23,819 nt of DNA from Candidatus Hydrothermarchaeales archaeon (GTDB lineage: Archaea > Hydrothermarchaeota > Hydrothermarchaeia > Hydrothermarchaeales > JAZGAD01), in NCBI GenBank assembly GCA_036444275.1, contig JAZGAD010000013.1, positions 1-23,819 on the forward strand, read 5' to 3'. Below the pieces are notes generated by a model. The model was not told the origin of the DNA. It ran no database searches and saw nothing but the letters and a program-made list of their open reading frames with translations. The position numbers and the translations under genes are program-made. Positions 1 to 22,706 of the stretch are shown here, in pieces; the first letter of the stretch is position 1, and each line of letters begins with the position of its first letter.

Positions 1-925
1 TAAACACCCACGTCTCTCTACTGGGCTTTAGCTTCGATATCTCTAAGATCTCGTCCCTGCTGCAGTGGGGGCATCCAATACAGACAATATCTACATCTCC
101 ATCGCAGGTGTTCAGAGAATCACTTGCGTCTGCCAGCTCCTTTCTGCCCAGAACTAGCTTTTCTACCTTTTCCTCTTTGCAGTCTGGCGTAACTCCCTCG
201 ACGTGGAACATGGATATGCCACCGGTTGCCAAGGCCGCGCCTAGAACCTTCATCTCATCCATGCTAGGCCGTATACCCTTGAAGATAGGGATTCCGTTCA
301 TCTTCGCAACGTGATAGCCCATGGCAGAGTACCCCCAAGCCCCTCGGAGCTCTTCCTCGACCTCAACAATGAAGGTTCCCCTCCTGTTTTCTTCAAGGTG
401 AAGTCCATAACATGGGATCTTTCCCAGCATGGCCGCTGCTAAGGCAGAGATGCCGCTCTCCCGGTTCGTACGCGCTCCCAAAACAGAATTGGCGAATGCC
501 ACTGCACTCGATTCTGCCCATGCTATATCCGCTCCATATGTAGGCTGGTTCCCAGCCAGGTAGGGCGTGCATGTACAGCTCTTTTGGACGCCCATCTTGT
601 GATATACATCTATTATCTCCTTCTGCTTCTCAGCGAAAGCTCTTGGAAAACCTAGTTCTTGCCATGCCTCAAGGTCTACTCCAGCTGGATTAGAAGTAGT
701 TGGAACCCTAACTTTTGTGCCAGTTGCCGCCCACTCATGAAGCAGCTCTAAGCCAGCCTCTCCAATAGTCTTATAGGATACCCCTGACACATGGGCGCTG
801 GCGATAGATACTAAGCCTGAAGCGTCCTTGATGTCCCCTAGCGCGACGAGAAGCTCCATTGCTCTACGCAGCCCGTCTCCACTCTCGCCTTCTAGGATTC
901 CTTCCTCTTCCTTTGTAAGATACAT
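1..925 (-). CDS. Aconitase X catalytic subunit (phosphomevalonate dehydratase large subunit-like); 3' end lies outside the window
   Basis: Not in the ORF track because it runs off the edge. Manual translation from ATG at 925 gives MYLTKEEEGILEGESGDGLRRAMELLVALGDIKDASGLVSIASAHVSGVSYKTIGEAGLE, later SCTCTPYL, AESSAVAFANSVLGARTNRESG and GCPHCS, typical of AcnX/DUF521. Lies directly downstream of the UbiD-family gene. Confidence 0.9.
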   Translation of the reverse strand, partial: MYLTKEEEGILEGESGDGLRRAMELLVALGDIKDASGLVSIASAHVSGVSYKTIGEAGLELLHEWAATGTKVRVPTTSNPAGVDLEAWQELGFPRAFAEKQKEIIDVYHKMGVQKSCTCTPYLAGNQPTYGADIAWAESSAVAFANSVLGARTNRESGISALAAAMLGKIPCYGLHLEENRRGTFIVEVEEELRGAWGYSAMGYHVAKMNGIPIFKGIRPSMDEMKVLGAALATGGISMFHVEGVTPDCKEEKVEKLVLGRKELADASDSLNTCDGDVDIVCIGCPHCSRDEILEISKLKPSRETWVF

Positions 926-967
926 ATTCCTACCTAGATATCAAATTTTAAATGCCTATTCCTCTCC

Positions 968-2221
968 CTATATGGACGCTCTCTCGAAGGTGCCCTTCTT
1001 ATCAAGCGGCTTCGTGGCATCCAAGCCTACTTTTGTAGTAATACTATTATGTGCACTTGGATCAAGAGAGGAGCCCTTCACATTTTTAAACATGGTTATA
1101 TCTCTATCAGCCTGAAATCTCGTTGCCAAAGCGAGCTCCACGTCAGTGGAATCAAAGATGTCTATGTCTTCGTCGACTATTACCACGTGCTTCATGCTGG
1201 GATGAGCCTCAAAGGCAGCGGCTATGGCTTTCCTGGCATCCTCGTCTCCCTGTTTCTCGATAGCTACAACGCCGTGCAACCAGTTTGCACCTCCCTCGGT
1301 GAGGCAGACATTACTCGCCTTCGCTACCTTGGCAACACCTGCGTAGATGCTGGGCTCTCTAGGCATGCCCATGAATATCTTATGCTCCTTGCTAGAAGGT
1401 AAGAGAGCGTGGTAGATGGCGTTCTTCCTGTGTGAGACACAGCTTATCTCGACTACAGGTTGCTGCCTAGCGATATCATAGGTGCCGGTTATATCAACGA
1501 ATGGACCCTCTTCTACCCTTTCGTTCGGCAGTATCCTGCCCTCTATGACGATCTCAGCAGAACTTGGCACTTTTAGGTCTACGGTCTTGCACTTAGCAAG
1601 CTCCAAGGGCTTATCTAAGAGGGCTGACGCCAATCTGAACTCGTCGTAGCCTAATGGTACGGAGTAGGACGCAGAGTACAACACGAGGGGATGCACGCCT
1701 AGGGCAATAGCTACCTCCAAGGGCTTTCCATTCTCCTCGGCCTTCTTGTGGTACAGATACAGGTGCCTTTCCACCAGTCTTATGGCAACGTGTTCCTCAT
1801 CGAGCACTTGGAAACGGTGGACCGAGACGTTCCTTCCGTATTCAGGGTCTCTGGCTATCACTATGCCCGCTGTTATGAATTTCCCGGCGTCGCCCTTGAA
1901 ATGATGAAGTATGGGTAGTGCACTCAGGCCCTTCTCTTTTACTTCATGACAGCTTTCATCATCGCTCAGTATTGGCTCTACTGGTTTCCCAACGGCTTCG
2001 AGCACTCTGCCTATGTAGCCCCCTTTGTCGGTGCCAAGAGCAGAACAGAGACGCTCTCTCGTAGGGCAGAGGTTGCCGACAGCTTTCAAGCTACTGTCCT
2101 TGCAGTTCTCGAAGAAGACCGTCTTTTCTGGGTTTTCGTGTAGGATTTTCGCCATCTCCAGATATGGGGAGACCTCCCCTTTAATGACGATCTCCTTTTT
2201 GAGAAACCCCTTCAGGTCCAT
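968..2221 (-). CDS. UbiD-family prFMN-dependent decarboxylase, probably trans-anhydromevalonate phosphate decarboxylase
   Basis: 417 aa with RNVSVHR, EIVIEG, EEGPFVDITGTY, VDEDIDIFD and GSSLDPS motifs. Context with acnX and ubiX. Confidence 0.9.
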   Translation of the reverse strand: MDLKGFLKKEIVIKGEVSPYLEMAKILHENPEKTVFFENCKDSSLKAVGNLCPTRERLCSALGTDKGGYIGRVLEAVGKPVEPILSDDESCHEVKEKGLSALPILHHFKGDAGKFITAGIVIARDPEYGRNVSVHRFQVLDEEHVAIRLVERHLYLYHKKAEENGKPLEVAIALGVHPLVLYSASYSVPLGYDEFRLASALLDKPLELAKCKTVDLKVPSSAEIVIEGRILPNERVEEGPFVDITGTYDIARQQPVVEISCVSHRKNAIYHALLPSSKEHKIFMGMPREPSIYAGVAKVAKASNVCLTEGGANWLHGVVAIEKQGDEDARKAIAAAFEAHPSMKHVVIVDEDIDIFDSTDVELALATRFQADRDITMFKNVKGSSLDPSAHNSITTKVGLDATKPLDKKGTFERASI

Positions 2222-2329
2222 GGCTTAATACTTGTACGAGGAGTTATTTAAATATCCTGGGAGCTGATTTTAAGCCCGGCAGACCTGATTTGGACCCTCG
2301 CTGAAACTTCCGAAGTCACAGGACCCCCA

Positions 2330-2635
2330 TCATTCTGCCCTGACAGAGACTTCCATGGTATCCGGATCGAACTTTATCTTCACCTTCGCCCCTAGCTTGA
2401 ATATAGTCTTGAGCTCTTTGGGGAATGTCACGCCGATGGAGTTCCCGATCTTCACCACGGTCCTCTCTTCCTCGATGTCTTTTAAGAACTTCTTCTGGAG
2501 TTTAATGGCGTCGTCTAGGTTTATCAAGGACTTTCCGCAGGTGGGACAAGTGTAGATTAGGACCTTCTCTCCGAGACGAGTTTCCCTTTTTTCTTCCATT
2601 TCAGTTTCGCAATCTCCACACTTCATACTATCCAA
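2330..2635 (-). CDS. Zn-ribbon plus AbrB/MazE-domain protein, putative antitoxin or regulator
   Basis: N-terminal CGDC...CPTC (YgiT/MqsA-like Zn ribbon); C-terminal VVKIGNSIGVTFPKEL matches the AbrB/SpoVT swapped-hairpin signature. The start may be the ATG at 2626. Confidence 0.75.
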   Translation of the reverse strand: MDSMKCGDCETEMEEKRETRLGEKVLIYTCPTCGKSLINLDDAIKLQKKFLKDIEEERTVVKIGNSIGVTFPKELKTIFKLGAKVKIKFDPDTMEVSVRAE

Positions 2636-2900
2636 ACTTCCTTTTCTTTGTCGTTATGCCCACGGTCACAGGCTCGATATACTCGTCCCTATCATAGAAT
2701 ATGACATAGATGACTTTCTTCTTGATCGACAAGACGGCACGGTATTTCCTCTTGCCTTCTCTGTATATCTCGCCGTAGAGGATTGCGTCCTTAGCTTTCT
2801 CAAAGTTCACTCTGTAGATGTTCCTCATTACAAAGTGTTCAATGTCTGCAAGTATGGGCTTCTTTCTGAGTTTCTCAGCCTCGCCTTCATCGAGCTTCAT
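2628..2900 (-). CDS. Small basic protein, putative toxin (DUF4258/BrnT/RelE-like)
   Basis: 90 aa, basic, with an early His (IEHF), AILYGEI and C-terminal beta-strands (VIYVIFY, IEPVTV). Coupled to the downstream AbrB gene. Family call is inference. Confidence 0.55.
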   Translation of the reverse strand: MKLDEGEAEKLRKKPILADIEHFVMRNIYRVNFEKAKDAILYGEIYREGKRKYRAVLSIKKKVIYVIFYDRDEYIEPVTVGITTKKRKFG

Positions 2901-2914
2901 TGAAAACCACTTCT

Positions 2915-2960
2915 GTTATAACAACTAATTATAACTAGTAATTATAACTAGTATAAAAAT
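2915..2960 (-). promoter_or_regulatory. TATA box plus tandem 13-bp operator-like repeats
   Basis: TTATAAC at 2916, 2929 and 2942; AATTATAACTAGT is exactly duplicated (2927-2939, 2940-2952); TTTTTATA on the minus strand at 2952-2959. Confidence 0.6.
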
Positions 2961-3042
2961 ATTGTGTAGAGTAGAACATACGGAACAGGAGACTTCTTTC
3001 CTCACCCAGTCCACTAATCTTTTTTTACTCTCTGGAAAAGTT

Positions 3043-3579
3043 CTATGGACCTCCCCATCTGGTGAAGAGATCATTCTCTATATCCAGAACATCTAGAATC
3101 TTACCTACGATGAAGTCCACTAAGTCCTCTATGTTTTTTGGATTGTGATAGAAGGCGGGCATAGCCGGAAGTATCGTTACCCCAAGCCTCGAGAGCTTCA
3201 GCATATTCTCTAAGTGTATAGCATTGAGTGGTGTTTCTCGTGGCACTATGACTAACTTTCTCCCCTCCTTGATGACCACATCAGCGCTTCTTGTTATGAG
3301 ATTAGAAGCCAGACCATTGGCGATCGCTGCTAGGGTCTTCATGCTGCACGGCGCTATAACCATAGCATCTATATGATGCGAGCCGCTGGAAAAGGGAGCC
3401 TCTATATCTTCTTCACTATAGCACTTCTCTTTTGTTTCGAGTTCGTGAGCTACTATCTTCTTGGCTGCATCAGAGAGGATACAGCTCACATCTATCCCCT
3501 TTTCCCCGAGGACTTCAAGTAAGCGGAACCCATAAACTACACCACTGGCACCGGTTATCGCCACCAAGATCCTAGGCAT
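3043..3579 (-). CDS. ubiX: Flavin prenyltransferase UbiX
   Basis: ITGASG, SSGS, IAPCSMKTLAAIANG, RETPL and PAFY motifs. Confidence 0.95.
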   Translation of the reverse strand: MPRILVAITGASGVVYGFRLLEVLGEKGIDVSCILSDAAKKIVAHELETKEKCYSEEDIEAPFSSGSHHIDAMVIAPCSMKTLAAIANGLASNLITRSADVVIKEGRKLVIVPRETPLNAIHLENMLKLSRLGVTILPAMPAFYHNPKNIEDLVDFIVGKILDVLDIENDLFTRWGGP

Positions 3580-11152: not shown

Positions 11153-11464
11153 TTATTCCTTAAACATCTGCAGGTCAAGTAATCTGGCACTATGAATAAC
11201 CCGCATTATGATTACCTTTGAGCTTTGAATGCGAAAAATGGTTCTGTAATTGGCATAGATAAGATGACGATATTCTTGCCCTAATTCCGTTGCTTCGGGT
11301 ATAATTGGACAGCGCATAGGAAAATTCTCTAACGAATCAATCTGGTGCTCGATCTCTTCAACCCATTTGCTAGCAGCATTTGGGTTATCTTGGGAAATAT
11401 ATTCAACGATCGATGTTATATCGGACTCAGCTACTGCGGTAATTTCAACATGAAACTTACGCAC
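11153..11464 (-). CDS. RelE/ParE family toxin
   Basis: VEITAVAESDI..I.EYISQDNPNAA, LENFPMRC, YRTIFRI and IMRVIHSAR. Overlaps the antitoxin stop. Confidence 0.88.
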   Translation of the reverse strand: MRKFHVEITAVAESDITSIVEYISQDNPNAASKWVEEIEHQIDSLENFPMRCPIIPEATELGQEYRHLIYANYRTIFRIQSSKVIIMRVIHSARLLDLQMFKE

Positions 11465-11729
11465 TGCCTTTAAGCTCCTTTAGAAAGTCTCGCGCCGGAC
11501 GAGTCCGCCCTTCTTTTACATCTGCTTCAGCTTCAGCTAATAAAACACCAAGATTTAATGCCTTCAATTTTTTCTCAAAAACTGCCGCATCAAGCAGTAC
11601 GACGTCTGGCTTTCCGTTAACGGTGACAACAATAGGACGGCCAGTACTGTGTAACTGCTCAAAAATTTCACGTGTCTTTTTCTTTAACTCGGAAACTGAT
11701 TTGATATCTTCAGTAATGCTTACAGGCAT
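11457..11729 (-). CDS. Phd/YefM family antitoxin
   Basis: IKSVSELKK...GRPIVVTVNGKPDVVLLD is the Phd fold signature; C-terminal AEADVKEGR. Confidence 0.9.
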   Translation of the reverse strand: MPVSITEDIKSVSELKKKTREIFEQLHSTGRPIVVTVNGKPDVVLLDAAVFEKKLKALNLGVLLAEAEADVKEGRTRPARDFLKELKGSA

Positions 11730-12775: not shown

Positions 12776-13240
12776 ATGAAGCTTACTCACCTCACTGAAA
12801 AAGGGGTAAGGATGGTAGAGATATCTGGGAAAGGGGATATCAAAAGGAAAGCAAAGGCCAGCGGCAAGATCAGACTACGAAAAGAGACCATCGCCAGAAT
12901 AAACGCTGGGGAAGTAGAGAAGGGAAATGTCCTCACCACGGCACAGATAGCAGCTACGCTGGCGGTTAAGAAGACCCCAGAACTGATACCCCTCTGCCAT
13001 CCTCTCCAGATAACCGGGGTAGACGTGCAATTCAACGTTGGAGAAGATGAGATAGAGACGACAGTCGAGGTTACATGCATCGCTAAAACCGGCGTTGAGA
13101 TGGAAGCCATAACCGGCGTTGCAACTGCCCTCTTAACTATCTGGGACATGGTTAAGTCTGTAGAGAAAGACGAGGCTGGACAGTATCCAATAACTGAGAT
13201 ATCTGAGATAAGGGTCCTGGAGAAGGTCAAGGGTGAATGA
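12776..13240 (+). CDS. moaC: Cyclic pyranopterin monophosphate synthase MoaC
   Basis: LTHL...[26 protein letters not shown] and TIWDMVKS. Confidence 0.96.
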
Positions 13241-13243
13241 AAA

Positions 13244-13780
13244 ATGAAGACATCTGAGAAACATAAAGAACTGGCACCGAAGAGTGTTAGGGCAGCTGTC
13301 GTCACCGTATCTGACTCGAAATTCGACTATCTGTGGAGCAGTGCAAAAGAGCTGGAGGAAACCAAGGATGTATCAGGGAAACATATTATGGATGCCTTGG
13401 AGAAAGCCGGCCACGAGATAGCCTTCTACACGATAGTACCTGACCACGAGGGGGTAATAGTAGAGATGATAGACCACATAGTGGCTACATACGCTCCAGA
13501 CATCATTATTACAACTGGCGGGACAGGCATAGCGAGGCGCGACGTAACAGTTGAAGCAGTGCAGAGTATCTTCGAGAAGGAGGTAGACGGCTTTGGGGAA
13601 CTATTCAGAAGGGAGAGCTTTGAAAAAATGGGAGGAGCTGCCTTGCTCACCAGGGCACTGGCAGGAGTATACCAGGATACGGTCATATTCTCTCTACCCG
13701 GCTCCCCTGATGCAGTTAAAACAGGCATGAAGATCATTCTGAAGGAAGCTGGACACCTTGTCAAACACCTACGAGAGTGA
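13244..13780 (+). CDS. moaB: Molybdopterin adenylyltransferase, MoaB/MogA family
   Basis: VTVSDS, D.SG, TTGGTGIARRDVTVEA, GFGELFR and LPGSP. Confidence 0.92.
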   Translation: MKTSEKHKELAPKSVRAAVVTVSDSKFDYLWSSAKELEETKDVSGKHIMDALEKAGHEIAFYTIVPDHEGVIVEMIDHIVATYAPDIIITTGGTGIARRDVTVEAVQSIFEKEVDGFGELFRRESFEKMGGAALLTRALAGVYQDTVIFSLPGSPDAVKTGMKIILKEAGHLVKHLRE

Positions 13781-13784
13781 TGTT

Positions 13785-14714
13785 ATGGTAACGAAAATTT
13801 ATGACAGGTTTAATAGGCCTTTGGTGAGCGCACGCATCTCGGTAACGCATAGGTGCAATCTGAACTGCCTATACTGCCATCGAGAGGGCGTCTCCGATAA
13901 CTCGCGGGAGGAGATGACCCCAGAGGAGATTGTAAGGGTAACCAGCATCTTAGCTAAGTATGGCATGAGCAAGGTGAAGATTACTGGCGGCGAGCCCCTT
14001 CTCCGCAGCGATATATGTGAAATCGTAGATGGCATTTCAGGTGTAGATGGTATAGAAGAGGTCTCGATGACTACGAATGGCGTCTATCTTGCCGGGTATG
14101 CTTCCAAGCTGAAAGACTCTGGCTTGAAGAGGGTCAACGTCAGCTTAGACACCCTGAATGCTAGGACCTTCAGGAAGATTACAAGAGGTGGAGGTCTCGC
14201 GGGCGTGCTAAGAGGCGTGGATGCAGCGGTAGACGCTGGTCTGAGGCCTGTGAAGCTGAATATGGTGGTTATGAATGGTATAAACGAGGATGAGATCGAG
14301 AGGATGCTAGAGTTTTCCTCCAAGGATGATGTGATCCTCCAGCTGATAGAGCTTATGACCACGGAGGGAGGCTTCTTCAGGGAGCACTTCTATGACCTAG
14401 ACGAAGTGGAGAGCAGCTTTGAGAGAAAGGCAAAAGATGTTATCACGAGGAGGTTTATGCAAGGACGCAAGAAGTACTTGTTGAACGGCGTTCAGGTTGA
14501 GGTTGTGAAGCCAATGCATAATACTGAGTTCTGCTCCCACTGTAGCAGGATGCGGATTACGGCTGACGGTAAATTCAAACCCTGCTTGATGAGGCGCGAC
14601 AACCTCGTGGACTTCTTATCCGAGATGAGGAATGGATCCTCAGATGCCAAATTAGAGGAGCTCTTTAAAGCCGCTGTTGATAGGAGAGAGCCCTTCTTCG
14701 TAGAGAAAAATTAA
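13785..14714 (+). CDS. moaA: GTP 3',8-cyclase MoaA (radical SAM)
   Basis: CNLNCLYCHREG, TGGEPLLR, NVSLDTL and FCSHCSRMRITADGKFKPCL. ATG at 13785 preferred over TTG at 13758. Confidence 0.96.
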   Translation: MVTKIYDRFNRPLVSARISVTHRCNLNCLYCHREGVSDNSREEMTPEEIVRVTSILAKYGMSKVKITGGEPLLRSDICEIVDGISGVDGIEEVSMTTNGVYLAGYASKLKDSGLKRVNVSLDTLNARTFRKITRGGGLAGVLRGVDAAVDAGLRPVKLNMVVMNGINEDEIERMLEFSSKDDVILQLIELMTTEGGFFREHFYDLDEVESSFERKAKDVITRRFMQGRKKYLLNGVQVEVVKPMHNTEFCSHCSRMRITADGKFKPCLMRRDNLVDFLSEMRNGSSDAKLEELFKAAVDRREPFFVEKN

Positions 14715-15503: not shown

Positions 15504-15578
15504 GGCCACGGTAGTGTAGCTTGGTTAGCACAAGGGGCTGTGGATCCCTTAGCCCGAGTTCAAATCTCGGCCGTGGCC
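15504..15578 (+). tRNA. tRNA-His (GTG), intronless, G-1 genomically encoded, CCA not encoded
   Basis: Acceptor stem GCCACGG/CCGTGGC with C73; anticodon arm AGGGG-CTGTGGA-TCCCT; T arm CCGAG-TTCAAAT-CTCGG; G at 15504 is the -1 position. Confidence 0.96.
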
Positions 15579-15681: not shown

Positions 15682-16275
15682 CTACTCATCTGCTCGGCAC
15701 GCCTTACAGATTTTCCTAGCTCCCTCCAGCTTCAAATATCCCGTCAATACTACCTCGCCGCATTCAGTGCATATCACATACTCCAGCGACGGCACTCCCT
15801 CAGTGTAAATCGCCTCACCTTTAGTAACAGTGAAGAGATCTTCATCCTGCATTTTTTCCAAGTCATTAACTATCCGCTGCCCCCATTGAAGCAGATCCCT
15901 TGCCTCCTTTTCTCTTTCCGTAGGTGGAAGGGACTTCACCTCCTTCCCGCGAATGCCGTAGCTGAGGGTGTCCTCCAGTATTTGGTTTTTGACCCTGATT
16001 CTTATTGTTTTATTAGATGCGAGGTCATGAAATGAGCAGGCGAATTTTCCATGCTCCTTGTAAGATAGGTTGTTCTTGCCATAGGTGGTGCCGCAGGCAT
16101 ACTGTATGCCGTCTGCGAGGCAGTTCCTGAACTCTACTGCAGCGAGGAGCTTAACCCCTTTCTCCCTATCCCTATCCAGCTCCTTCAAGGCTTTCTCTCC
16201 CATCCTCAAGCCCAAGTAAAACATCGGGCAAAGGTGCCCATGGAACTTCACAGCCTCTTCTAATTCCAGGCCCAT
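15682..16275 (-). CDS. FmdE-family protein with a C-terminal zinc finger
   Basis: FHGHLCP..YLGLRMG, CLADGIQ, TYGKNNL, GKFA, and C-terminal CTECGE...CKAC. ATG at 16275 preferred. Confidence 0.88.
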   Translation of the reverse strand: MGLELEEAVKFHGHLCPMFYLGLRMGEKALKELDRDREKGVKLLAAVEFRNCLADGIQYACGTTYGKNNLSYKEHGKFACSFHDLASNKTIRIRVKNQILEDTLSYGIRGKEVKSLPPTEREKEARDLLQWGQRIVNDLEKMQDEDLFTVTKGEAIYTEGVPSLEYVICTECGEVVLTGYLKLEGARKICKACRADE

Positions 16276-16312
16276 GCAACAAGCTTTTATCTCCACAAAT
16301 AAAGGTTTTTGT

Positions 16313-17020
16313 ATGAAGAGTGATGTCGAGGAGTACTACTCAAGGAGGGCTCATACTTATCACGACCTAGATAAGCCCAATACTATAGTAGCCTGCGTCA
16401 GAGCAATAGGCATAGAAGACCACTTAGAGATAATCGCGCCTAAGCCAAGCGAAAAGATACTAGACATGGGCTGTGGATCAGGTAGATTCCTAAAGCCTTT
16501 TTCCATCGCCAAGGTATACGGCATAGACTTTACGATTAAAATGCTGCAAAAGGCGAAGGATAGCGGTGTGCCCCTAGTTCGCGGGGATGTGGAGCACCTG
16601 CCGTTCAAGAGCAACGCATTTGATATAGTACACTCAGCTGGGCTGCTGGGCGTATACAGATCAAAAAAGATACTCGCTGAAGCTGCAAGGGTGGCGAAAA
16701 AAGGTGGAAAGATGTATGTGAGCTTCCCGGCTACTCCAAGCGCTAGTGGTGTCGCTGTGAAACTCTTCCAAAGGTTCTATAACCCAGCCTTGCTTGATTA
16801 CTGGTATACAAAAGGCGAGATAAAGGAGATGCTACCGGGAGGAGTAATAGTTTTAGATATTCATCGTCTGGGATGGGAACCCCCATTCCAGCGCATCTAC
16901 AGGTATGTGGGGTCTGAGAGGCTGGTCAAACTCTTCTTGTACCTCGAGAGGAATCTGAGAGATAAGCCTATGTTCAAGTACTTCAGGGCCCGCTTCCTCT
17001 TGGAGGTCGTGAAGGAGTAA
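16313..17020 (+). CDS. Class I SAM-dependent methyltransferase
   Basis: ILDMGCGSG, GIDFT..ML, GDVEHLPF...FDIV and RVAKKGG. ATG at 16313 preferred. Confidence 0.9.
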   Translation: MKSDVEEYYSRRAHTYHDLDKPNTIVACVRAIGIEDHLEIIAPKPSEKILDMGCGSGRFLKPFSIAKVYGIDFTIKMLQKAKDSGVPLVRGDVEHLPFKSNAFDIVHSAGLLGVYRSKKILAEAARVAKKGGKMYVSFPATPSASGVAVKLFQRFYNPALLDYWYTKGEIKEMLPGGVIVLDIHRLGWEPPFQRIYRYVGSERLVKLFLYLERNLRDKPMFKYFRARFLLEVVKE

Positions 17021-17081: not shown

Positions 17082-17381
17082 ATGCCCACGGTATCCGTTA
17101 GACTGGATGAAGGCACTCTCAAGGATCTGCAATTCCTCATGAAGGACTATAAGGCTGATAGATCAGAAGTCCTGAGAAGGCTTCTAGACAGAGGTTTAAA
17201 ACAGGCAAAAATAGAGAAAGTCTTAGGGCTACTGCGTGAACACAAGATCTCCATCGGGAAGGCAGCAAAACTCGCGGGAATTACGATTTACGAGATGATC
17301 GAGCTCTGCAAGGAGCACGAGATCCACATAGGCTACACGAAGGAAGACCTGTATCGGGATTTGGAGAGATTCAGGATTTAA
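17082..17381 (+). CDS. UPF0175-family antitoxin with an N-terminal ribbon-helix-helix
   Basis: TVSVRLD...DRSEVLRRLL (RHH), then ISIGKAAKLAGITIYEMIEL (UPF0175). Confidence 0.85.
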   Translation: MPTVSVRLDEGTLKDLQFLMKDYKADRSEVLRRLLDRGLKQAKIEKVLGLLREHKISIGKAAKLAGITIYEMIELCKEHEIHIGYTKEDLYRDLERFRI

Positions 17382-17393
17382 GAGGGTGAGTCT

Positions 17394-17900
17394 ATAAAGG
17401 CTGTCTTGAACTCAACTCCATTGATCTACCTCGGGAAGGTCGGGAAGCTGGAGCTTTTGAAAGATTACGACGAGGTTTTTATTTCTCCAACGGTCTATGA
17501 GGAGACCGTCAGCAAAGGCATTGAGAAAGGCTTCCTCGACGCGAAGATTATTCAAAAGGCCGTCGATGGGGGCATGGTTAAATTAAAAAAACTTAATACA
17601 GAGCAGAGCAAAGAAGCGCTGGAACTAACGAAATTCGCAGGTATAGAGCTCGGCGAGGCTGAGGCGATCATACTTGCAAAGGACTTGAAAGCAGAGCTAC
17701 TGATAGACGACGTTGTCGCCCATGGCGTTGGGAGGACCTTTGGGATGGAACCCTTATGGACCACTAGCTATATCTTAAAGTTAGTCAGTAAAGAGAGGCT
17801 CACCAAAACTGGGGCTAGAGAGATCATAGAAAAACTCGTAGAAGCCGGCTATCGAATAAGCGAAGACGTACTTGTAGAAGTCCTACGAAGACTAGGTTGA
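17394..17900 (+). CDS. DUF3368-type PIN-domain toxin (VapC-like); start uncertain (ATA at 17394 or TTG at 17406)
   Basis: KAVLNSTPLIYL, VYEE, LGEAEAIILA, LLIDD and GYRIS. Paired with the UPF0175 gene. Confidence 0.85.
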   Translation: MKAVLNSTPLIYLGKVGKLELLKDYDEVFISPTVYEETVSKGIEKGFLDAKIIQKAVDGGMVKLKKLNTEQSKEALELTKFAGIELGEAEAIILAKDLKAELLIDDVVAHGVGRTFGMEPLWTTSYILKLVSKERLTKTGAREIIEKLVEAGYRISEDVLVEVLRRLG

Positions 17901-17936: not shown

Positions 17937-18173
17937 CTATTCCTGCGGCTTTGAAGCAGGCGTATACCCAGTAACAACATTATTACTCTGGATAAAATAC
18001 AGTGGAAACCCAGTTATAGGGTCCTTTTCTTCTGTCCTAAAGATGCTTGTTACAATGATCTTAAGCCGTAAGACATTGCCGTCACTCAAGCTGTACTCGT
18101 TCCACTCTTCCTTCATCGGCTCGAAGTCAATCTGCTCAGCTTCTACAACTCTTCCACCCATATTTATTTTCAT
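17937..18173 (-). CDS. Small beta-rich hypothetical protein, last gene of the methyltransferase/AAA operon
   Basis: 78 aa with EEWNEYSLSDG...DPITGFPLY; strong GAGGAGGT Shine-Dalgarno; 11 bp after the AAA stop. Confidence 0.8.
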   Translation of the reverse strand: MKINMGGRVVEAEQIDFEPMKEEWNEYSLSDGNVLRLKIIVTSIFRTEEKDPITGFPLYFIQSNNVVTGYTPASKPQE

Positions 18174-18184
18174 TTTGTACCTCC

Positions 18185-19066
18185 TCAGAAATTGTACTTG
18201 TGGATGCAGTCTTCACCATATATTTTATCATATCCACGTACCATCACCGGTGTCAACCATGGTCTAACTTTCCCCAATGCATATTCCAAATCATCGGCAG
18301 ACAGCACTACTGAATCATTGTCTTTTCCCAATACATGTAGCTTCGCCTTTCTGCAAAGTGCCTCTATATCCCAGCCCACGTAGTACTCTGTCTGCTTCAC
18401 CAGCTTCTTTAAGTCAACACTGGGGAGCTTCGCGTCCTTCAAATAGTACTTGAATATCTCCAGCCTATCCTCCTCGCCTGGCCTAGGAACATAAATCTTC
18501 CTCCCCAGCATGCTCGTCCTCGTGAACGCTTGATCTAACACATCGATGCGGTAGCACGAAGCAGCTACAATAACATCAGGCATAGACGCGACCTTCTCAA
18601 CCTCCTCATGCACAGCACGGTGCACTTCGTCGCTCCCAAATTTATCAGGCTTGCCACTGGTAGAGCTGTCGTCCCAAGCATAATCAACATCCTTCCTCGG
18701 ACAGAGCCAATCGATGTCCATCAAGTGCAATACACAAGGCCTGTTCTCCACGGCGAACTTAAAGCCGTCTCTAATTACCCTCGGGTGATCTGTACATTCC
18801 CTACCTCTGATTATTACGTAGCTCACCCCAGCTTCTCCAGCAGCGGCCTCAATCATGTGCCCCTTGCCAGTACCAAGCGGTCCCCAGACGACCACGCCTG
18901 TTGGAGGAGTTATACCAGCGCGCTCCAACACCTCTGGATATACTAGGGGCACTACAATCATGTCATTGAACTTCTCCTTCACAGAAGCGTAGCCAGCTAT
19001 CTGGTCGAAACTGAACTTGGGATTCCTGACGTCCAAATAGGTGTGCTCATAAACCTTAGCCTTCAT
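18185..19066 (-). CDS. Single-domain Cdc48-like AAA+ protein; Walker A Lys kept, Walker B and Arg finger degenerate
   Basis: GVVVWGPLGTGKG, PCVLHLMDID, ASCYRID, FTRTSMLGRKIYVPRP and YVGWDIEALCRKA. Confidence 0.85.
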   Translation of the reverse strand: MKAKVYEHTYLDVRNPKFSFDQIAGYASVKEKFNDMIVVPLVYPEVLERAGITPPTGVVVWGPLGTGKGHMIEAAAGEAGVSYVIIRGRECTDHPRVIRDGFKFAVENRPCVLHLMDIDWLCPRKDVDYAWDDSSTSGKPDKFGSDEVHRAVHEEVEKVASMPDVIVAASCYRIDVLDQAFTRTSMLGRKIYVPRPGEEDRLEIFKYYLKDAKLPSVDLKKLVKQTEYYVGWDIEALCRKAKLHVLGKDNDSVVLSADDLEYALGKVRPWLTPVMVRGYDKIYGEDCIHKYNF

Positions 19067-19082
19067 TTATTCCCTCGATGAA

Positions 19083-19943
19083 TCAATACATGTAGCGGTG
19101 TTTGCACTCTTCCCTAAAGATCTCTTCATGGTGCTTCACCACAGCTGGGTCAAGAGCTGGTGGAACCTTCTTCACAGCGTCTTTAAAGTGCGTCAACGCT
19201 ACCTCCTGAAAGTCGTCACCCTTATCTTTTATCGCCAGCAATGCTGCCTCCCTAACCAGTGATAGGAGGTCACCTGAGGAATAGCTCTCTGTCATCTCTG
19301 CTAGTTTTTCTAGCGACACATCCTCGCATATGGGCATATTCTTAAGGGACAATTTGAAAATCTCGATCCGATCGTAGTAGTCTGGGGCAGGAACATACAC
19401 CTTGCGGTCTATCCTCCCATTCCTGAGCAGAGCTGGATCTAGGAGTTCCGGGCGCTGTGTGGCGCCAAGCGTGATCACGTCTTCACGTTTTGCTATCTTG
19501 TCTATCTCTGAAAACAAAAGCCTAGTAATAACAGAAGAAGCCCACTTCTCATCTGCCGTCTCTACCTCCCGCCTTGGGGCTAGAATCTCTATATCACCAA
19601 TGAAAACGACACATGGAGCTAATTCAGATGCCTTCTCATACAAGGTGGAAATATGCTCATTATCCCCCATTAGATCCATAGCCTTCGCTGAGATGTAGTT
19701 ACAGCCTGCAGATTCCGCCGCTGCTTCACCAAGGGCACCAAAACCACTGTTAGAAGGCCCCCACATTAGCACGCCTATATGTGGCTTAACACCGGCCTTC
19801 TTAAAGGTCTCTGGGTACTTCAAAGGCAGGGATACTAGTTCCTCCAGGCGTTCCTTTACCTCCTTGAATCCAGCTATAGCTTCCCAGGACAACTTAGGCT
19901 CCTTCACCTTGAAATATTCCCCTGGGTCAAGCACTTCACACAT
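19083..19943 (-). CDS. Single-domain Cdc48-like AAA+ protein; Walker A Lys lost, Arg finger intact
   Basis: GVLMWGPSNSGFG, PCVVFIGDIE, GATQRPELLDPALLRNGRIDRKVYVPAPD and YSSGDL. Confidence 0.88.
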   Translation of the reverse strand: MCEVLDPGEYFKVKEPKLSWEAIAGFKEVKERLEELVSLPLKYPETFKKAGVKPHIGVLMWGPSNSGFGALGEAAAESAGCNYISAKAMDLMGDNEHISTLYEKASELAPCVVFIGDIEILAPRREVETADEKWASSVITRLLFSEIDKIAKREDVITLGATQRPELLDPALLRNGRIDRKVYVPAPDYYDRIEIFKLSLKNMPICEDVSLEKLAEMTESYSSGDLLSLVREAALLAIKDKGDDFQEVALTHFKDAVKKVPPALDPAVVKHHEEIFREECKHRYMY

Positions 19944-19980: not shown

Positions 19981-21036
19981 CTAACTACCGTATTTCCTCG
20001 CAGCTTCTACCAGTGCATGGATATTTTCAAAGGGCGTTCCAGAATGTAGACCACAGCTACTGGAGACAATGTAGCCTTTTTTTCCAGCTCCCTGGATGCA
20101 CTCCTTGACCTTTGAATCTATATCCTCCTTGCTTCCCTTGAATATTAATTCTACGGAGACATTCCCAAATAATGCAACCTTGCTCCCTACTTTTTCCCGA
20201 GCTTGCTCTAGCGGGACACTCTCGTCTATGCTCAGACACCTAGCCCCAGTAGTAGCGAGTTCCCCAAGTATCTCTGACGTGTCTCCGCATATGTGGATTA
20301 TTACGCTACCGCCATACTTCCCAAGAGCAGAGCACACCTTCTTCTCATAGGGATATGCGAACTCACGATAATGCCTGTGGGAGATAACCTGGCATGCAGC
20401 CGATGGGTCTTCCATCATTATCCCATGTGTACCAGTATCTATCTGCCTCTTGCCAACTTCTATCGCTATGTCAGCCATGAAGTCCAACAACTTGTGGGCA
20501 TCCCTAGGCGAGGTCACCAGATCAAACATAAAGTTCTCCATGCCACGCATCCACTCAGCAGCATAGTGAAAGGGAGCCGGAACCTTGCTGCAGATATAGA
20601 CTCTATCTTTCGTAAGTTCTAAAAGCGTAGCTAGCGGCTGCATTCGCTCGGCACTAAAGTCAGGCACCTCTAATTCGTCTAGGGTAGAATAGTCTTTCAG
20701 CGCTGGTTCAACTACAGCAGGTCCACCTTCCAGAGGTATCTTGAGCTTTGGGCCCAGCTCAGTTGGGAGTACTACGTAGCCATCTTTGGTTTCCATACTA
20801 CGCTTCTCCTTCTCGGTCACGCCCTGAATTGGCTGGTGATTAAAGATCCAATCATATTTGTACTTCTCCAGGGCTGCAAGCTGTCCCTTTACGTAGAGCT
20901 CGTTGTCAGTCACGTATTCCCACGGCTTAACTCCTAAAACCTTGGAGGCATGAGGCACATTCACCATAGGTGCAACCGGTACCAAGTCAGGCTCTTGTAG
21001 GTCCATTGCAGCCTGAAAACGCTCCCTCGAATTCAT
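19981..21036 (-). CDS. MtaA/CmuA (UroD superfamily) Zn-dependent methylcobamide methyltransferase
   Basis: MNSRERF...PDLVPVAP, the HICG Zn motif, GNV and SSSCG. Start set at ATG 21036, 4 bp after the corrinoid gene stop. Confidence 0.85.
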   Translation of the reverse strand: MNSRERFQAAMDLQEPDLVPVAPMVNVPHASKVLGVKPWEYVTDNELYVKGQLAALEKYKYDWIFNHQPIQGVTEKEKRSMETKDGYVVLPTELGPKLKIPLEGGPAVVEPALKDYSTLDELEVPDFSAERMQPLATLLELTKDRVYICSKVPAPFHYAAEWMRGMENFMFDLVTSPRDAHKLLDFMADIAIEVGKRQIDTGTHGIMMEDPSAACQVISHRHYREFAYPYEKKVCSALGKYGGSVIIHICGDTSEILGELATTGARCLSIDESVPLEQAREKVGSKVALFGNVSVELIFKGSKEDIDSKVKECIQGAGKKGYIVSSSCGLHSGTPFENIHALVEAARKYGS

Positions 21037-21040
21037 ATTT

Positions 21041-21694
21041 TCATCTGCCTTTTGAGTGCATAGCCTGCAACTCACGCATAATCTCCTCGAACAAACGGAC
21101 TGCCTTCCCAGCATCGCTGGCATAGCCATTGGCTCCTATTCTCTTGCAATAGGGATCAGAAACTGCTGCACCACCGATGATGAATTTCACACTATCCTTC
21201 AAACCCTGTCTCTCAAACTCCTCGATTACTCCCTGCATCTTATCCATAGTGGTAGACATCATTGCCGAAAGAGCAACGACATCGGGCTTTATCTCTTTCA
21301 CCTGCTCCACAAAAGCTTTAACAGGTACATCCCTACCTAGGTTGTGGACCTCGAAGCCGGCGCCCTCCAAGAACATGGCTACCAAATTCTTGCCTATATC
21401 ATGAACGTCCCCCTCAACTGTGCCGATCACTACCCTGCCACGGTTGTCGTCGTCGCTGGTGAAAAGTCTAGGACGCAGCAACTCTAGTGCCTTCTGCATT
21501 GTATGGGCAGACAGCAATACTTCAGGCACAAAATACTCCCTGTTTTCGTATTTATTTCCAACTTCTTCCATACCGCTAGTCAGCTCTTGCAGGACCTCGT
21601 CAGCCTCACGCGTCTCCAAGGCATCCGCTACGAGTTTTGAGATTCTGGAAATATCTCCCTTTATTATAGCCTCCTCTATTGCATCAACTCTCAT
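21041..21694 (-). CDS. Corrinoid (B12-binding) methyltransferase protein, MtbC/MttC-like
   Basis: Cap domain with EYFVPEVLLSA; GTVEGDVHDIGKNLV (DxHxxG), LSAMM and IIGGA. Confidence 0.95.
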   Translation of the reverse strand: MRVDAIEEAIIKGDISRISKLVADALETREADEVLQELTSGMEEVGNKYENREYFVPEVLLSAHTMQKALELLRPRLFTSDDDNRGRVVIGTVEGDVHDIGKNLVAMFLEGAGFEVHNLGRDVPVKAFVEQVKEIKPDVVALSAMMSTTMDKMQGVIEEFERQGLKDSVKFIIGGAAVSDPYCKRIGANGYASDAGKAVRLFEEIMRELQAMHSKGR

Positions 21695-22706
21695 TAGCTA
21701 CCCTTACCATCTCTTTTATGTTATCTCCATTTGCATTGGCCGGTACCACACAACCAGAGCTAAGAACGACTTTATCCTGAAGTCTAACGACAGCCTCAGA
21801 TGCCCTTCTAACTTCTTCTTTGCTCCCGTCTACCAGCAATGCTGGAGAGACATTTCCCCAAACAGCTGTATGCTCATGCACCTGGACAATGTCCATAACT
21901 TCGTCCACGCTTATACAATCTGCACCTGTGGCAATCATATCTCCTAATATTTGCTTCACATCACCGCATATATGGAAGATTACAGGCACTTGGATCTCAT
22001 CTATCAGGGCTTTTTCATAAGGCAGAGCAAACTTTCGATAATCCCCGGGGGAGATTACGCTTCCAGAGGCAGCCGGGTCCTCGACGTAAAGAGCGTCTGC
22101 TCCAGCATCGACTTGGGCTTTCGCATATTGAGTACAGTACTCCAAAGCAAAGTCTAGGAATTCATATGCAGAGGCTTCATCGGTCTTCATAGCAAGTAGG
22201 AATGACTCTAAGTCGTATAGAAAGGTCGAAGCAAGGGTGAAGGGACAACGCATGTTGCCGCATACAAAGTCCTCTTCCTGCATTAGGCGGATAGGTGACA
22301 TACGCTCCTCGTCTGGCACTGGAATCTTGAGTTCTTTAAGTTCTTTACTAGAGGATACAGCGCTCTTCACCAACTGCGGCTGTCCCTGCGGGAAGACCTT
22401 GTATTTCACGCCTAGCTCTAGTGTAAGGATAGCATGATCGCTAGAGAACTCTACTCCCTCCCTTTCTTTTCCTGTTACTGCGCCAAAGAATTGATGAGCC
22501 CACACCCAATCGTAGCCGTAATATTCCCGTGCATGAATCTGTGCTTGGGCATATCTCTCGCTGTCAAGGAGATATTCGAGAGGTTTAATTCCAGAAAGCT
22601 TGGAGGAATGGCCGAGGTTTATAAGTGGTGCAACTGGAACGCGGTCTGTGACCTTGCCAAAAATTGACTCCAGAACGATCATGTCTTTATGTCTATGAAA
22701 GAACAT
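21684..22706 (-). CDS. Second MtaA/CmuA (UroD superfamily) methyltransferase
   Basis: DRVPVAP, CPFTLA, EDPAASGSVISP, FHICGD, WGNVSP and SSGC. Overlaps the corrinoid gene start by 11 bp. Confidence 0.85.
   Translation of the reverse strand: MFFHRHKDMIVLESIFGKVTDRVPVAPLINLGHSSKLSGIKPLEYLLDSERYAQAQIHAREYYGYDWVWAHQFFGAVTGKEREGVEFSSDHAILTLELGVKYKVFPQGQPQLVKSAVSSSKELKELKIPVPDEERMSPIRLMQEEDFVCGNMRCPFTLASTFLYDLESFLLAMKTDEASAYEFLDFALEYCTQYAKAQVDAGADALYVEDPAASGSVISPGDYRKFALPYEKALIDEIQVPVIFHICGDVKQILGDMIATGADCISVDEVMDIVQVHEHTAVWGNVSPALLVDGSKEEVRRASEAVVRLQDKVVLSSGCVVPANANGDNIKEMVRVANES

Follow-up and report, generated by a model that had tools for sequence, protein, structure and literature searches.

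Contig JAZGAD010000013.1 of the genome assembly GCA_036444275.1, from a Candidatus Hydrothermarchaeales archaeon, encodes two adjacent paralogues of the AAA family, which we term A and B; the stretch analysed, positions 1 to 23,819 in nucleotides (nt), is referred to here as the window. Paralogue A (19083..19943, minus strand, 286 residues) carries a dead P-loop and paralogue B (18185..19066, minus strand, 293 residues) a remodelled one. Both are complete open reading frames (ORFs) and have the lengths and positions reported in an earlier note on this DNA, which had proposed that the two proteins form an obligate alternating heteromer. They belong to a tightly packed row of genes on the minus strand. 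The first gene of this operon encodes an MtaA/CmuA-like URO-D methyltransferase, MT2_340 (21684..22706), and is followed by the genes for a corrinoid (B12-binding) protein (21041..21694), for another MtaA/CmuA-like URO-D methyltransferase, MT_382 (19981..21129), for A and B, and for a product of 78 residues (17937..18173). MT_382 lies directly upstream of A at a distance of 37 nt, and 16 nt separate the stop of A from the start of B; the A-B spacing is 3-16 nt at six of eight loci, and the longest-ORF calls overlap at the other two. The corrinoid gene and the longest ORF of MT_382 share 89 nt, the alignments of MT_382 with its relatives begin only at residue 14-31, and upstream stops were flagged in 6/10; the start of MT_382 is likely the ATG at 21036, giving a protein of 351 residues. 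Both URO-D proteins contain, as seen by eye, an H-x-C motif and a later Cys, which we take to resemble the Zn site of MtaA. The 78-residue ORF begins 11 nt after B and has a GGAGG-like site; no homologue of it was found in its own genome or at the archaeal loci, it matches no Pfam or NCBIfam family, and it is probably not part of the AAA system.

A and B match the Pfam families AAA (PF00004) and AAA_lid_3 and no other family, with scores of 70.6 and 39.4 bits for A and 53.3 and 39.2 bits for B; these lie above the gathering scores of 21.2 and 27.2 and place both proteins in the classic AAA clade. Among the NCBIfam models the best alignment is with the D2 half of CDC48 (TIGR01243), at 214 bits for A and 140 bits for B against a cut-off of 802.65. 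The alignment covers profile positions 445-733 only and there is no match to CDC48_N, so that neither protein qualifies for the CDC48/VAT family. Each is a single module, preceded by only ~12-15 residues and devoid of an N-domain. The nearest sequence in the PDB is the D2 domain of VAT, with per-domain E-values of 1e-54 (A) and 5e-33 (B). AlphaFold2 models were obtained for B (predicted local distance difference test, pLDDT, 94.4; predicted TM-score, pTM, 0.91) and A (pLDDT 90.5, pTM 0.87), and in that of B an insertion and the C-terminal tail are confidently ordered. A Foldseek search with the model of B placed CDC48A/p97 D2 (probability 1.00) and PAN on top, and the ESM Atlas, which returned generic AAA clusters alone, agrees with the fold assignment. 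Fusion partners were sought with a profile search of 1.84 billion representatives, a weak test in which multi-domain proteins of the Cdc48 type crowded the results; the family itself was represented by P0017, P0245 and P0344 alone, and P0241 is an ordinary triple-AAA Cdc48. A word search for longer forms, likewise a weak test, gave one Cdc48-like protein and no fusion.

Motifs were called from alignments of A and B with the Cdc48 D1 and D2 domains and PAN of their own genome, and the census was extended to 191 family sequences: 18 orthologues of A, 52 of B, 49 of a third paralogue (C), 8 proteins of what we call the AC type, and 64 bacterial sequences. A gap of five residues lies over pore loop 1 (the W/Y-x-G-E-S columns) in A, in B and in all 191 sequences, and both proteins have an insertion after Walker B, in the region of pore loop 2, located at about residues 122-145 in B. 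The absence of the aromatic pore loop and of any N-domain, both noted before, is therefore a property of the proteins as read here, and a role as unfoldases, which the earlier note had also set aside, is judged unlikely on the same grounds. The family ends in a tail of the form C-x-H-x-[Y/S]-x-[F/Y], present in 188/191 sequences and common to all clades. It reads EECKHRYMY in A, which starts with Met-Cys, and EDCIHKYNF in B. Proteasome-activating AAA proteins end in the HbYX motif, with a penultimate Tyr at the C-terminus; here the tails (...HRYMY, ...HKYNF) have Tyr at position -3, the scores of 174/170 and 123/125 bits compare with a cut-off of 500, and we rejected a proteasome-docking HbYX tail because the Tyr is not penultimate.

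Neither A nor B contains a canonical Walker A (GxxGxGK[TS]) together with a canonical Walker B (hhhhDE), and the six short strings on which the earlier note had rested its reading are all present in the translations. In A, the P-loop is GPSNSGFG (residues 62-69), and GK[TS] occurs in 0/18 orthologues. Its Walker B region, FIGDIE (residues 114-119), has Gly-Asp at the acid positions; among orthologues the Asp position holds D, G, N, S or R, and the Glu position is occupied by E in 11 of the 18, by D in 6 and by N in 1. Both Arg fingers, R174 and R177, are kept in ALLRNGRIDR (171-180), and R/R is found at these positions in 18/18 orthologues. A thus combines the loss of the Walker A Lys with the retention of the fingers, as had been described, which is the motif pattern of a pseudo-ATPase that donates Arg fingers and fits a subunit acting in trans. 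In B, the P-loop GPLGTGKGH (62-70) retains Lys68 and lacks the Thr/Ser that should follow it; orthologues of B have Lys in 50/52 and Arg in 2/52, and Thr/Ser in 0/52, with G, A, W or M instead. The earlier statement that B keeps its P-loop therefore stands as far as the Lys is concerned, but the site is not plainly competent. Walker B of this paralogue, HLMDIDW (114-120), has Met116-Asp117, and Met-Asp is found in 52/52; the replacement of the Walker B Asp-Glu by a residue followed by Asp was thus correctly read in both proteins, with the qualification that it varies among the orthologues of A. Sensor 1 of B is Tyr172 (Tyr in 52/52), which bears out the reported loss of the sensor-1 Asn, and Trp232 occupies the sensor-2 position (Trp in 52/52). 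Its Arg fingers, described before as lost, are lost in part: in FTRTSMLGR (181-189) R183 is kept as finger 1 and Met186 stands at finger 2, and this R/M state is invariant (52/52). Taken together, the motif pattern of B is that of a conserved Gly-rich loop in a pocket with invariant Trp residues.

The third paralogue, C, lies on another contig of the same genome (G000:C20:5006-5878) and is present in 10/10 of the genomes of the order that bear A. It is the sole paralogue among the three with a canonical P-loop, GPPGGGK[TS], which is found in 49/49 sequences. At Arg finger 1 Lys replaces Arg in 44/49 sequences, Arg is kept at finger 2 in 49/49, and the tail reads C-x-H-C-Y-L-F. Among the matches to C we found eight AC-type proteins, which join features of A and C: the P-loop GK[TS] is canonical in 8/8 and is accompanied by Asn-Glu at Walker B, the R-x-G-R fingers have Arg at finger 1 in 6/8 and at finger 2 in 8/8, a Met-Cys start is seen in 4/8, and the tail is CKHRYMY in six and CPHRYQY in the other two. 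Visualizing the relatedness of the sequences with IQ-TREE, we observed one group made up of B and the bacterial homologues (support 100/99) and another of A and C (99/96); the outgroups, Cdc48 and PAN, attach between the two. In a second tree the AC-type proteins branch before the split of A and C (97/97), and A and C are sisters (93/81), with A on a long stem of 0.27. On the metagenomic contig L107 and on L108, an AC-type gene stands directly upstream of a B gene. Two genomes of 2.1-2.2 Mb (G047 and G048) contain exactly two short forms each, one AC and one B-type, and the L108 genome (0.8 Mb) contains AC, B and one unresolved ORF of 341 residues with 44% identity. In this basal two-paralogue state the B-type proteins have RRGR fingers and the AC-type proteins a full P-loop.

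Given the trees, and given that AC-type proteins possess both the P-loop and both Arg fingers, the best account is that A and C arose by duplication of an AC-type gene followed by complementary loss. The ancestral state would have comprised two genes, one AC-type, with a canonical P-loop and both fingers, and one B-type, with a remodelled pocket. After the duplication, A would have given up nucleotide binding while retaining the CKHRYMY tail, the N-terminal Cys and both Arg fingers; in C, the P-loop and the Glu of Walker B would have been retained, whereas Arg finger 1 disappeared and the tail was altered. Since A and C are sisters that appear to have divided the motifs of one ancestor, the reciprocal partner of A is C, not B; the reciprocal loss that had been reported is thus real, but it lies between A and C. 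Orthologues with canonical motifs, which the earlier note would have taken as a sign of lineage-specific decay, exist as far as the AC-type relatives and their P-loops are concerned, but not among the true orthologues of A (0/18).

The degenerate motif states are kept across orthologues from several families of the order. On the 3-5 pairs per gene that are not saturated, the ratio of nonsynonymous to synonymous substitution rates (dN/dS, by the Nei-Gojobori method) falls at 0.04-0.26 in A, 0.13-0.17 in B and 0.07-0.17 in C, and it is similar, 0.05-0.14, for the neighbouring methyltransferase; members of a clade share a median pairwise identity of 55% (A), 63% (B) and 69% (C). Because purifying selection acts on the genes and their degenerate motifs are conserved, the view that these are conserved, neo-functionalised proteins rather than decaying ones is close to demonstrated. 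The comparison of orthologues and of dN/dS that the earlier note had called for thus finds the substitutions to be clade-wide, and its argument against simple decay, then based on intact ORFs, holds with dN/dS at 0.04-0.26 across the three paralogues.

A search of 41 related genomes gave A-type genes in ten (the genome of the window counted). Of the 35 genomes of the order, A and C occur in 10 and B in nine; in the tenth, G001, the contig ends inside the A gene. The gene order corrinoid protein, MT_382, A, B was observed at 10/10 loci, as far as the contigs reach. Orthologues of MT_382 (at least 66% identity) are found in exactly the ten genomes that bear the AAA set and in one more, G013, where the gene sits 290 nt from the contig end. 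Four genera (g3, g11, g13 and g18) include genomes with and without the set, and the methyltransferase tracks the set each time. In the basal AC lineage (G047/G048), a 68%-identical orthologue of MT_382 lies right beside the AC gene, in divergent orientation. From gene order and co-occurrence, the A/AC lineage thus appears to be tied to one MtaA-like URO-D methyltransferase, MT_382. Near the cluster, a gene for an NMT1/THI5-like substrate-binding protein is accompanied by an ABC permease gene at two loci (L013 11177-12929 and L015 2499-4216); this pair may serve to import the methyl donor. A homologue of the corrinoid activases RACo/RamA (PF14574) is encoded elsewhere in the genome of the window (G000:C12:51700-52479) and in 9/10 set-bearing genomes, the one in which it was not found, G024, being 62% complete. 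In one genome (G010:C32:8622-9362) it lies ~1 kb from the methyltransferase/AAA cluster and contains one in-frame TGA, for which either recoding of the codon or an error in sequencing could account.

B has a different set of relatives. With B as query, ~53 archaeal clusters (57-83% identity) are followed by many bacterial proteins of 292-293 residues at ~40% identity, in records that include Deferrisoma camini, Geothermobacter ehrlichii, Desulfuromonas versatilis, Nitrospirota, Firestonebacteria and Verrucomicrobiota. These homologues have the pore-loop deletion, the insertion with a conserved Trp, the sensor-1 Tyr, the Trp at the sensor-2 position and a DCPHHY-x-F tail; in their P-loop, Lys is found in 0/64 (Ile, Met or Val stand instead) and the Thr is retained. 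By phylogeny, B belongs to an older lineage and is orthologous to these single-copy bacterial proteins. Directly 3' of the bacterial gene and on the same strand lies, at 42 of the 52 loci with at least 600 nt of downstream sequence, a gene for an FmdE-domain protein (PF02663), at a median distance of 20.5 nt. The ten loci without it are seven titled Nitrospirae/Nitrospirota, one actinomycetotal locus, and two at which a permease follows directly. An ArsP_1-family permease usually comes after the bacterial FmdE gene; its nearest NCBIfam models are those of the SO_0444 Cu/Zn-efflux and SaoE proteins, under their cut-offs. No corrinoid or URO-D gene was seen near the bacterial homologues (0/61 loci). 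At five bacterial loci (L082, L087, L039, L044 and L049) the AAA, FmdE and permease genes are followed by genes for FG-GAP/ASPIC, CarboxypepD_reg/DUF4198 and PQQ-like propeller proteins, and upstream of them there are multihaem cytochromes or a TonB-dependent receptor, which suggests that the three genes are part of a larger envelope locus for metal handling.

In the window, the FmdE-domain gene (15682..16296, minus strand), a neighbour conserved for the B lineage in bacteria and archaea, is divergently paired with a gene for a class I S-adenosylmethionine (SAM)-dependent methyltransferase of the Methyltransf_11 family (16274..17020, plus strand). Orthologues of this pair (window 15682-17020) occur in 8 of the 10 set-bearing genomes and in 1 of the 25 others, and the basal B-type gene is flanked by genes for FmdE and a SAM methyltransferase. 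In the operon of L108, AC and B are preceded by an unknown gene, FmdE and a radical SAM gene, in this order. It therefore appears, on neighbourhood evidence, that the B lineage is tied to FmdE and the SAM methyltransferase. At the same locus (L108 3645-12331, of the AC-type lineage), FmdE genes paired with radical SAM genes lie on both sides of the AC-B pair, and the operon is headed by a protein of 651 residues that belongs to no family; a radical SAM gene is also found near C in L013. FmdE was first described in operons of the molybdenum formylmethanofuran dehydrogenase, and for this reason a link to molybdenum or tungsten is conceivable. The FHGHxC motif is invariant in an alignment of 34 FmdE neighbours, and the FmdE protein of the window has it, along with a C-terminal zinc finger. 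According to the available sections of the paper on FmdE structures (PMC2954224), this motif binds Zn/Ni and PF02663 genes mostly neighbour metal-ion transporters; the same sections make no mention of a link to an ATPase or AAA family. Our literature searches turned up no description of this family of short AAA proteins and no connection between FmdE and any AAA protein. The main texts of two Hydrothermarchaeota genome papers contain no reference to AAA, Cdc48, FmdE, corrinoid or MtaA, and their supplements (e.g. PMC6775978 Table S15, on methyltransferases) may list the genes.

From the motif states, their conservation and selection, the phylogeny, the synteny and the co-occurrence, all of which are observed, we hypothesize that A, B and C make up a non-threading, hetero-oligomeric AAA scaffold or chaperone for a metal- or cofactor-dependent methyltransferase system, and we give this hypothesis a probability of about one half. 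The three proteins would be specialised subunits of an assembly derived from a module of the Cdc48/VAT D2 type, and that they form a hetero-oligomer is, in our estimate, probable to a modest degree. Because A cannot be expected to bind nucleotide and yet has both Arg fingers under selection, it would need a nucleotide-binding AAA neighbour, and C is the candidate since it has the sole canonical P-loop, co-occurs with A in 10/10 genomes and has lost precisely a finger. ATP would then be bound by C alone and read by A via its Arg fingers. B, on account of its position adjoining A, with which we regard it as co-translated, and of its Gly-rich loop, could be a non-catalytic structural or ligand-binding subunit with a Trp-lined pocket. 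The lack of a pore loop and of an N-domain, together with Tyr at sensor 1 even in C, argues for a nucleotide-gated scaffold or chaperone, a switch that does not thread its substrate. The three subunits would associate physically with each other and with FmdE or the methyltransferase; with the Zn/Ni-binding FmdE and the SAM methyltransferase, the assembly might serve the co-inherited MtaA-like corrinoid methyltransferase system by building its metal or cofactor centre or keeping it intact, and the C-x-H-x-Y-x-F/Y tail might be a metal- or partner-binding element. The handling of a metal or cofactor, for which the FmdE link in both domains of life, the Cys/His tail and the Zn/corrinoid clients speak, is the more tentative part of the proposal.

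Several observations weigh against this hypothesis. The bacterial B-type gene is single-copy in 5/5 genomes searched, and B may for this reason act as a homo-oligomer or monomer without A or C. Even the one 'good' site, that of C, may not hydrolyse ATP, judging from its Asn-Glu Walker B and its sensor-1 Tyr. The 12.5-kb contig L108 carries an AC-B pair and no URO-D or corrinoid gene, so that the methyltransferase link is not universal, and in G047/G048 AC and B lie at separate loci with their own neighbours each, which weakens the case for an obligate AC-B complex. The pair of FmdE and SAM methyltransferase was not found in two set-bearing genomes, G001 (80% complete) and G032 (82% complete), and the pair is present in G031, a genome without the AAA set. 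We stress that the genomes are related and not independent, so that the co-occurrence counts overstate the support. A broader and more doubtful conjecture would be that the short AAA proteins are AAA-derived, largely ATP-independent metallochaperones or maturation scaffolds, a class not recognised before. The Cys-x-His-x-Tyr tail and the Trp-lined pocket would then pass a metal ion or metallocofactor between FmdE-type proteins and clients or exporters, namely the Zn/corrinoid methyltransferases in Hydrothermarchaeota and the ArsP/SO_0444-type metal efflux permease in Desulfuromonadales and relatives.

The heteromer envisaged at the outset, an obligate alternating A3B3 ring of A and B alone in which B is nucleotide-competent, A supplies the Arg fingers and half of the sites are active, has in its favour that A and B are adjacent and tightly coupled at 10/10 loci and that A, with R/R fingers in 18/18 and no P-loop Lys, is matched by a B that has the Lys in 50/52. 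An alternating AC/B ring is, moreover, plausible for the ancestor, given basal B-types with RRGR fingers and AC-types with a full P-loop. For the present-day proteins we nonetheless find it unlikely, and the claim that half of its sites are competent does not hold up: B lacks the Mg-binding Thr/Ser (0/52), both acids of its Walker B are substituted (Met-Asp), and Tyr and Trp occupy sensor 1 and the sensor-2 position, respectively; the orthologues in bacteria have the P-loop Lys in 0/64 and are single-copy, and the sole canonical P-loop belongs to C, which co-occurs in 10/10 genomes and is a sister of A with complementary losses. The paralogues might also act separately, B with FmdE and the SAM methyltransferase, and A and C with the URO-D methyltransferase. 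The adjacency of A and B would then reflect two modules of one pathway, with B as a homo-oligomer or monomer, an arrangement that agrees with the single-copy bacterial genes and with G047/G048, where AC has the MT_382 orthologue as its neighbour and the B-type gene occupies another site, next to FmdE and the SAM methyltransferase. We consider it somewhat less improbable than the A3B3 ring, but not likely, because AC or A directly precedes B with very short gaps in L107, L108 and the ten set-bearing genomes, and because A, without a nucleotide site, keeps both Arg fingers that act in trans, which makes sense only beside another AAA subunit.

The position of A and B at the 3' end of the operon of two methyltransferases and a corrinoid protein, and the strict co-occurrence of the set with that operon, would also suit an ATP-dependent accessory to the reductive activation of the corrinoid, replacing or assisting an activase of the RamA/RACo type. 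This is very unlikely: with a PF14574 homologue in the same genome and in nine of the ten set-bearing genomes nothing is missing that would have to be replaced, corrinoid and URO-D genes are absent from the surroundings of the bacterial relatives (0/61 loci), the proteins show neither a redox domain nor an Fe-S motif, and ATP could be bound by one paralogue at most. The distribution of PF14574 led us to reject replacement of RamA/RACo, and the identity of A and B with such activases was rejected because they match AAA domains alone and have no RACo_C_ter ASKHA domain. Least probable, in our estimate, is that A and B are relaxed or decaying Cdc48 duplicates that lack a function, or an ATPase linked to defence or to toxin-antitoxin systems. 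The degenerate catalytic motifs, the toxin-antitoxin-like pairs that flank the genes in the window and beside C, and weak PADLOC matches to IetA (1e-11 to 1e-15) might be cited in its support; however, dN/dS is well under 1, family-specific residues are invariant, the family occurs in both bacteria and archaea, frameshifts or gene losses affecting most close relatives were not observed, the flanking pairs are not conserved neighbours, and the PADLOC/NCBIfam anti-phage matches are below cut-off and far weaker than generic Cdc48 ones. The anti-phage AAA proteins IteA/IetA were likewise rejected, the NCBIfam IteA score being 42-49 bits against a cut-off of 510 and the PADLOC IetA matches weak, at 1e-11 to 1e-13.

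The split of A and C is a clean natural instance of duplication and complementary loss in which the cis part (the P-loop) and the trans part (the Arg finger) of an AAA active site went separate ways; under the broader conjecture, too, it would amount to a single such site shared out between two genes in nature. As the undivided AC ancestor type still exists, the evolution of an obligate AAA heteromer would be directly testable. An unnamed family of many bacteria and of Hydrothermarchaeota that has shed every threading element would, in addition, exemplify a non-unfolding role of AAA proteins, and FmdE-domain proteins, whose function has been open since their structures of 2010, would gain a conserved partner. 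The set may also provide accessory factors needed to express the MtaA-like corrinoid methyltransferase system of uncultured archaea.

The remainder of the window holds genes of other kinds. The space separating B from the SAM methyltransferase holds a UPF0175/DUF3368 pair (17082-17900, plus strand), a match to PDC-S70, a candidate system of PADLOC; a diverged second copy (36% and 28% identity) is found beside paralogue C on the other contig (L022 6038-6862), where a PIN/MazE pair also flanks C. A ParE toxin/Phd-YefM antitoxin pair is encoded at 11153-11729 (minus strand). A row of molybdenum-cofactor genes, MoaC, MoaB/Mog-like and MoaA (12776-14714, plus strand), and a tRNA gene (15505-15578, plus strand) are situated just past the FmdE gene. 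The interval 2-3579 (minus strand), with aconitase X, a UbiD-family decarboxylase and a flavoprotein with a UbiX-like prenyltransferase fold, is unrelated to the AAA genes.

By fold and descent, A and B are AAA modules of the classic clade, and they fail the tests that define Cdc48, PAN and the unfoldases. The D2 domain of Cdc48/VAT/p97 is nearest in sequence and fold, with which they share Pfam AAA and AAA_lid_3 and a recognisable second region of homology; in contrast to these proteins, they are single modules of ~290 residues without N-domain or D1, pore loop 1 is deleted, the pore-loop-2 region carries an insertion, the Walker and sensor motifs are degenerate, the family tail C-x-H-x-Y-x-F/Y takes the place of an HbYX-type end, and the scores fall far under the family cut-offs. 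RamA/RACo activases use ATP and occupy a similar operon position in corrinoid methyltransferase clusters, but theirs is a different fold (ASKHA and Fe-S), and the true homologue is encoded elsewhere in the genome. FmdE-domain proteins (PF02663) are a partner family of the set and are not themselves AAA proteins. Mixed AAA+ rings are known from the clamp-loader delta/delta-prime subunits, Rpt1-6, Pex1/Pex6 and Yta10/Yta12, in which some subunits without ATP binding still contribute trans residues or structure. Translocation or loading of a substrate is still the task of these rings, which have retained pore loops or DNA-binding elements, whereas the short AAA family has none of the known substrate-engaging loops. 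In the Torsin system (see PMC4358337), an AAA+ ATPase without an Arg finger is activated by LAP1 or LULL1, an AAA-like partner that does not bind nucleotide and provides the Arg. The likeness is one of principle only: A keeps Arg fingers without nucleotide motifs and C keeps a P-loop without one finger, so that the donor-type motif pattern of A would be a functional analogy, without homology to LAP1. Torsin belongs to another AAA+ clade and to a eukaryotic system of the endoplasmic reticulum lumen, whereas A, B and C are three paralogues that arose by recent duplication within one lineage.

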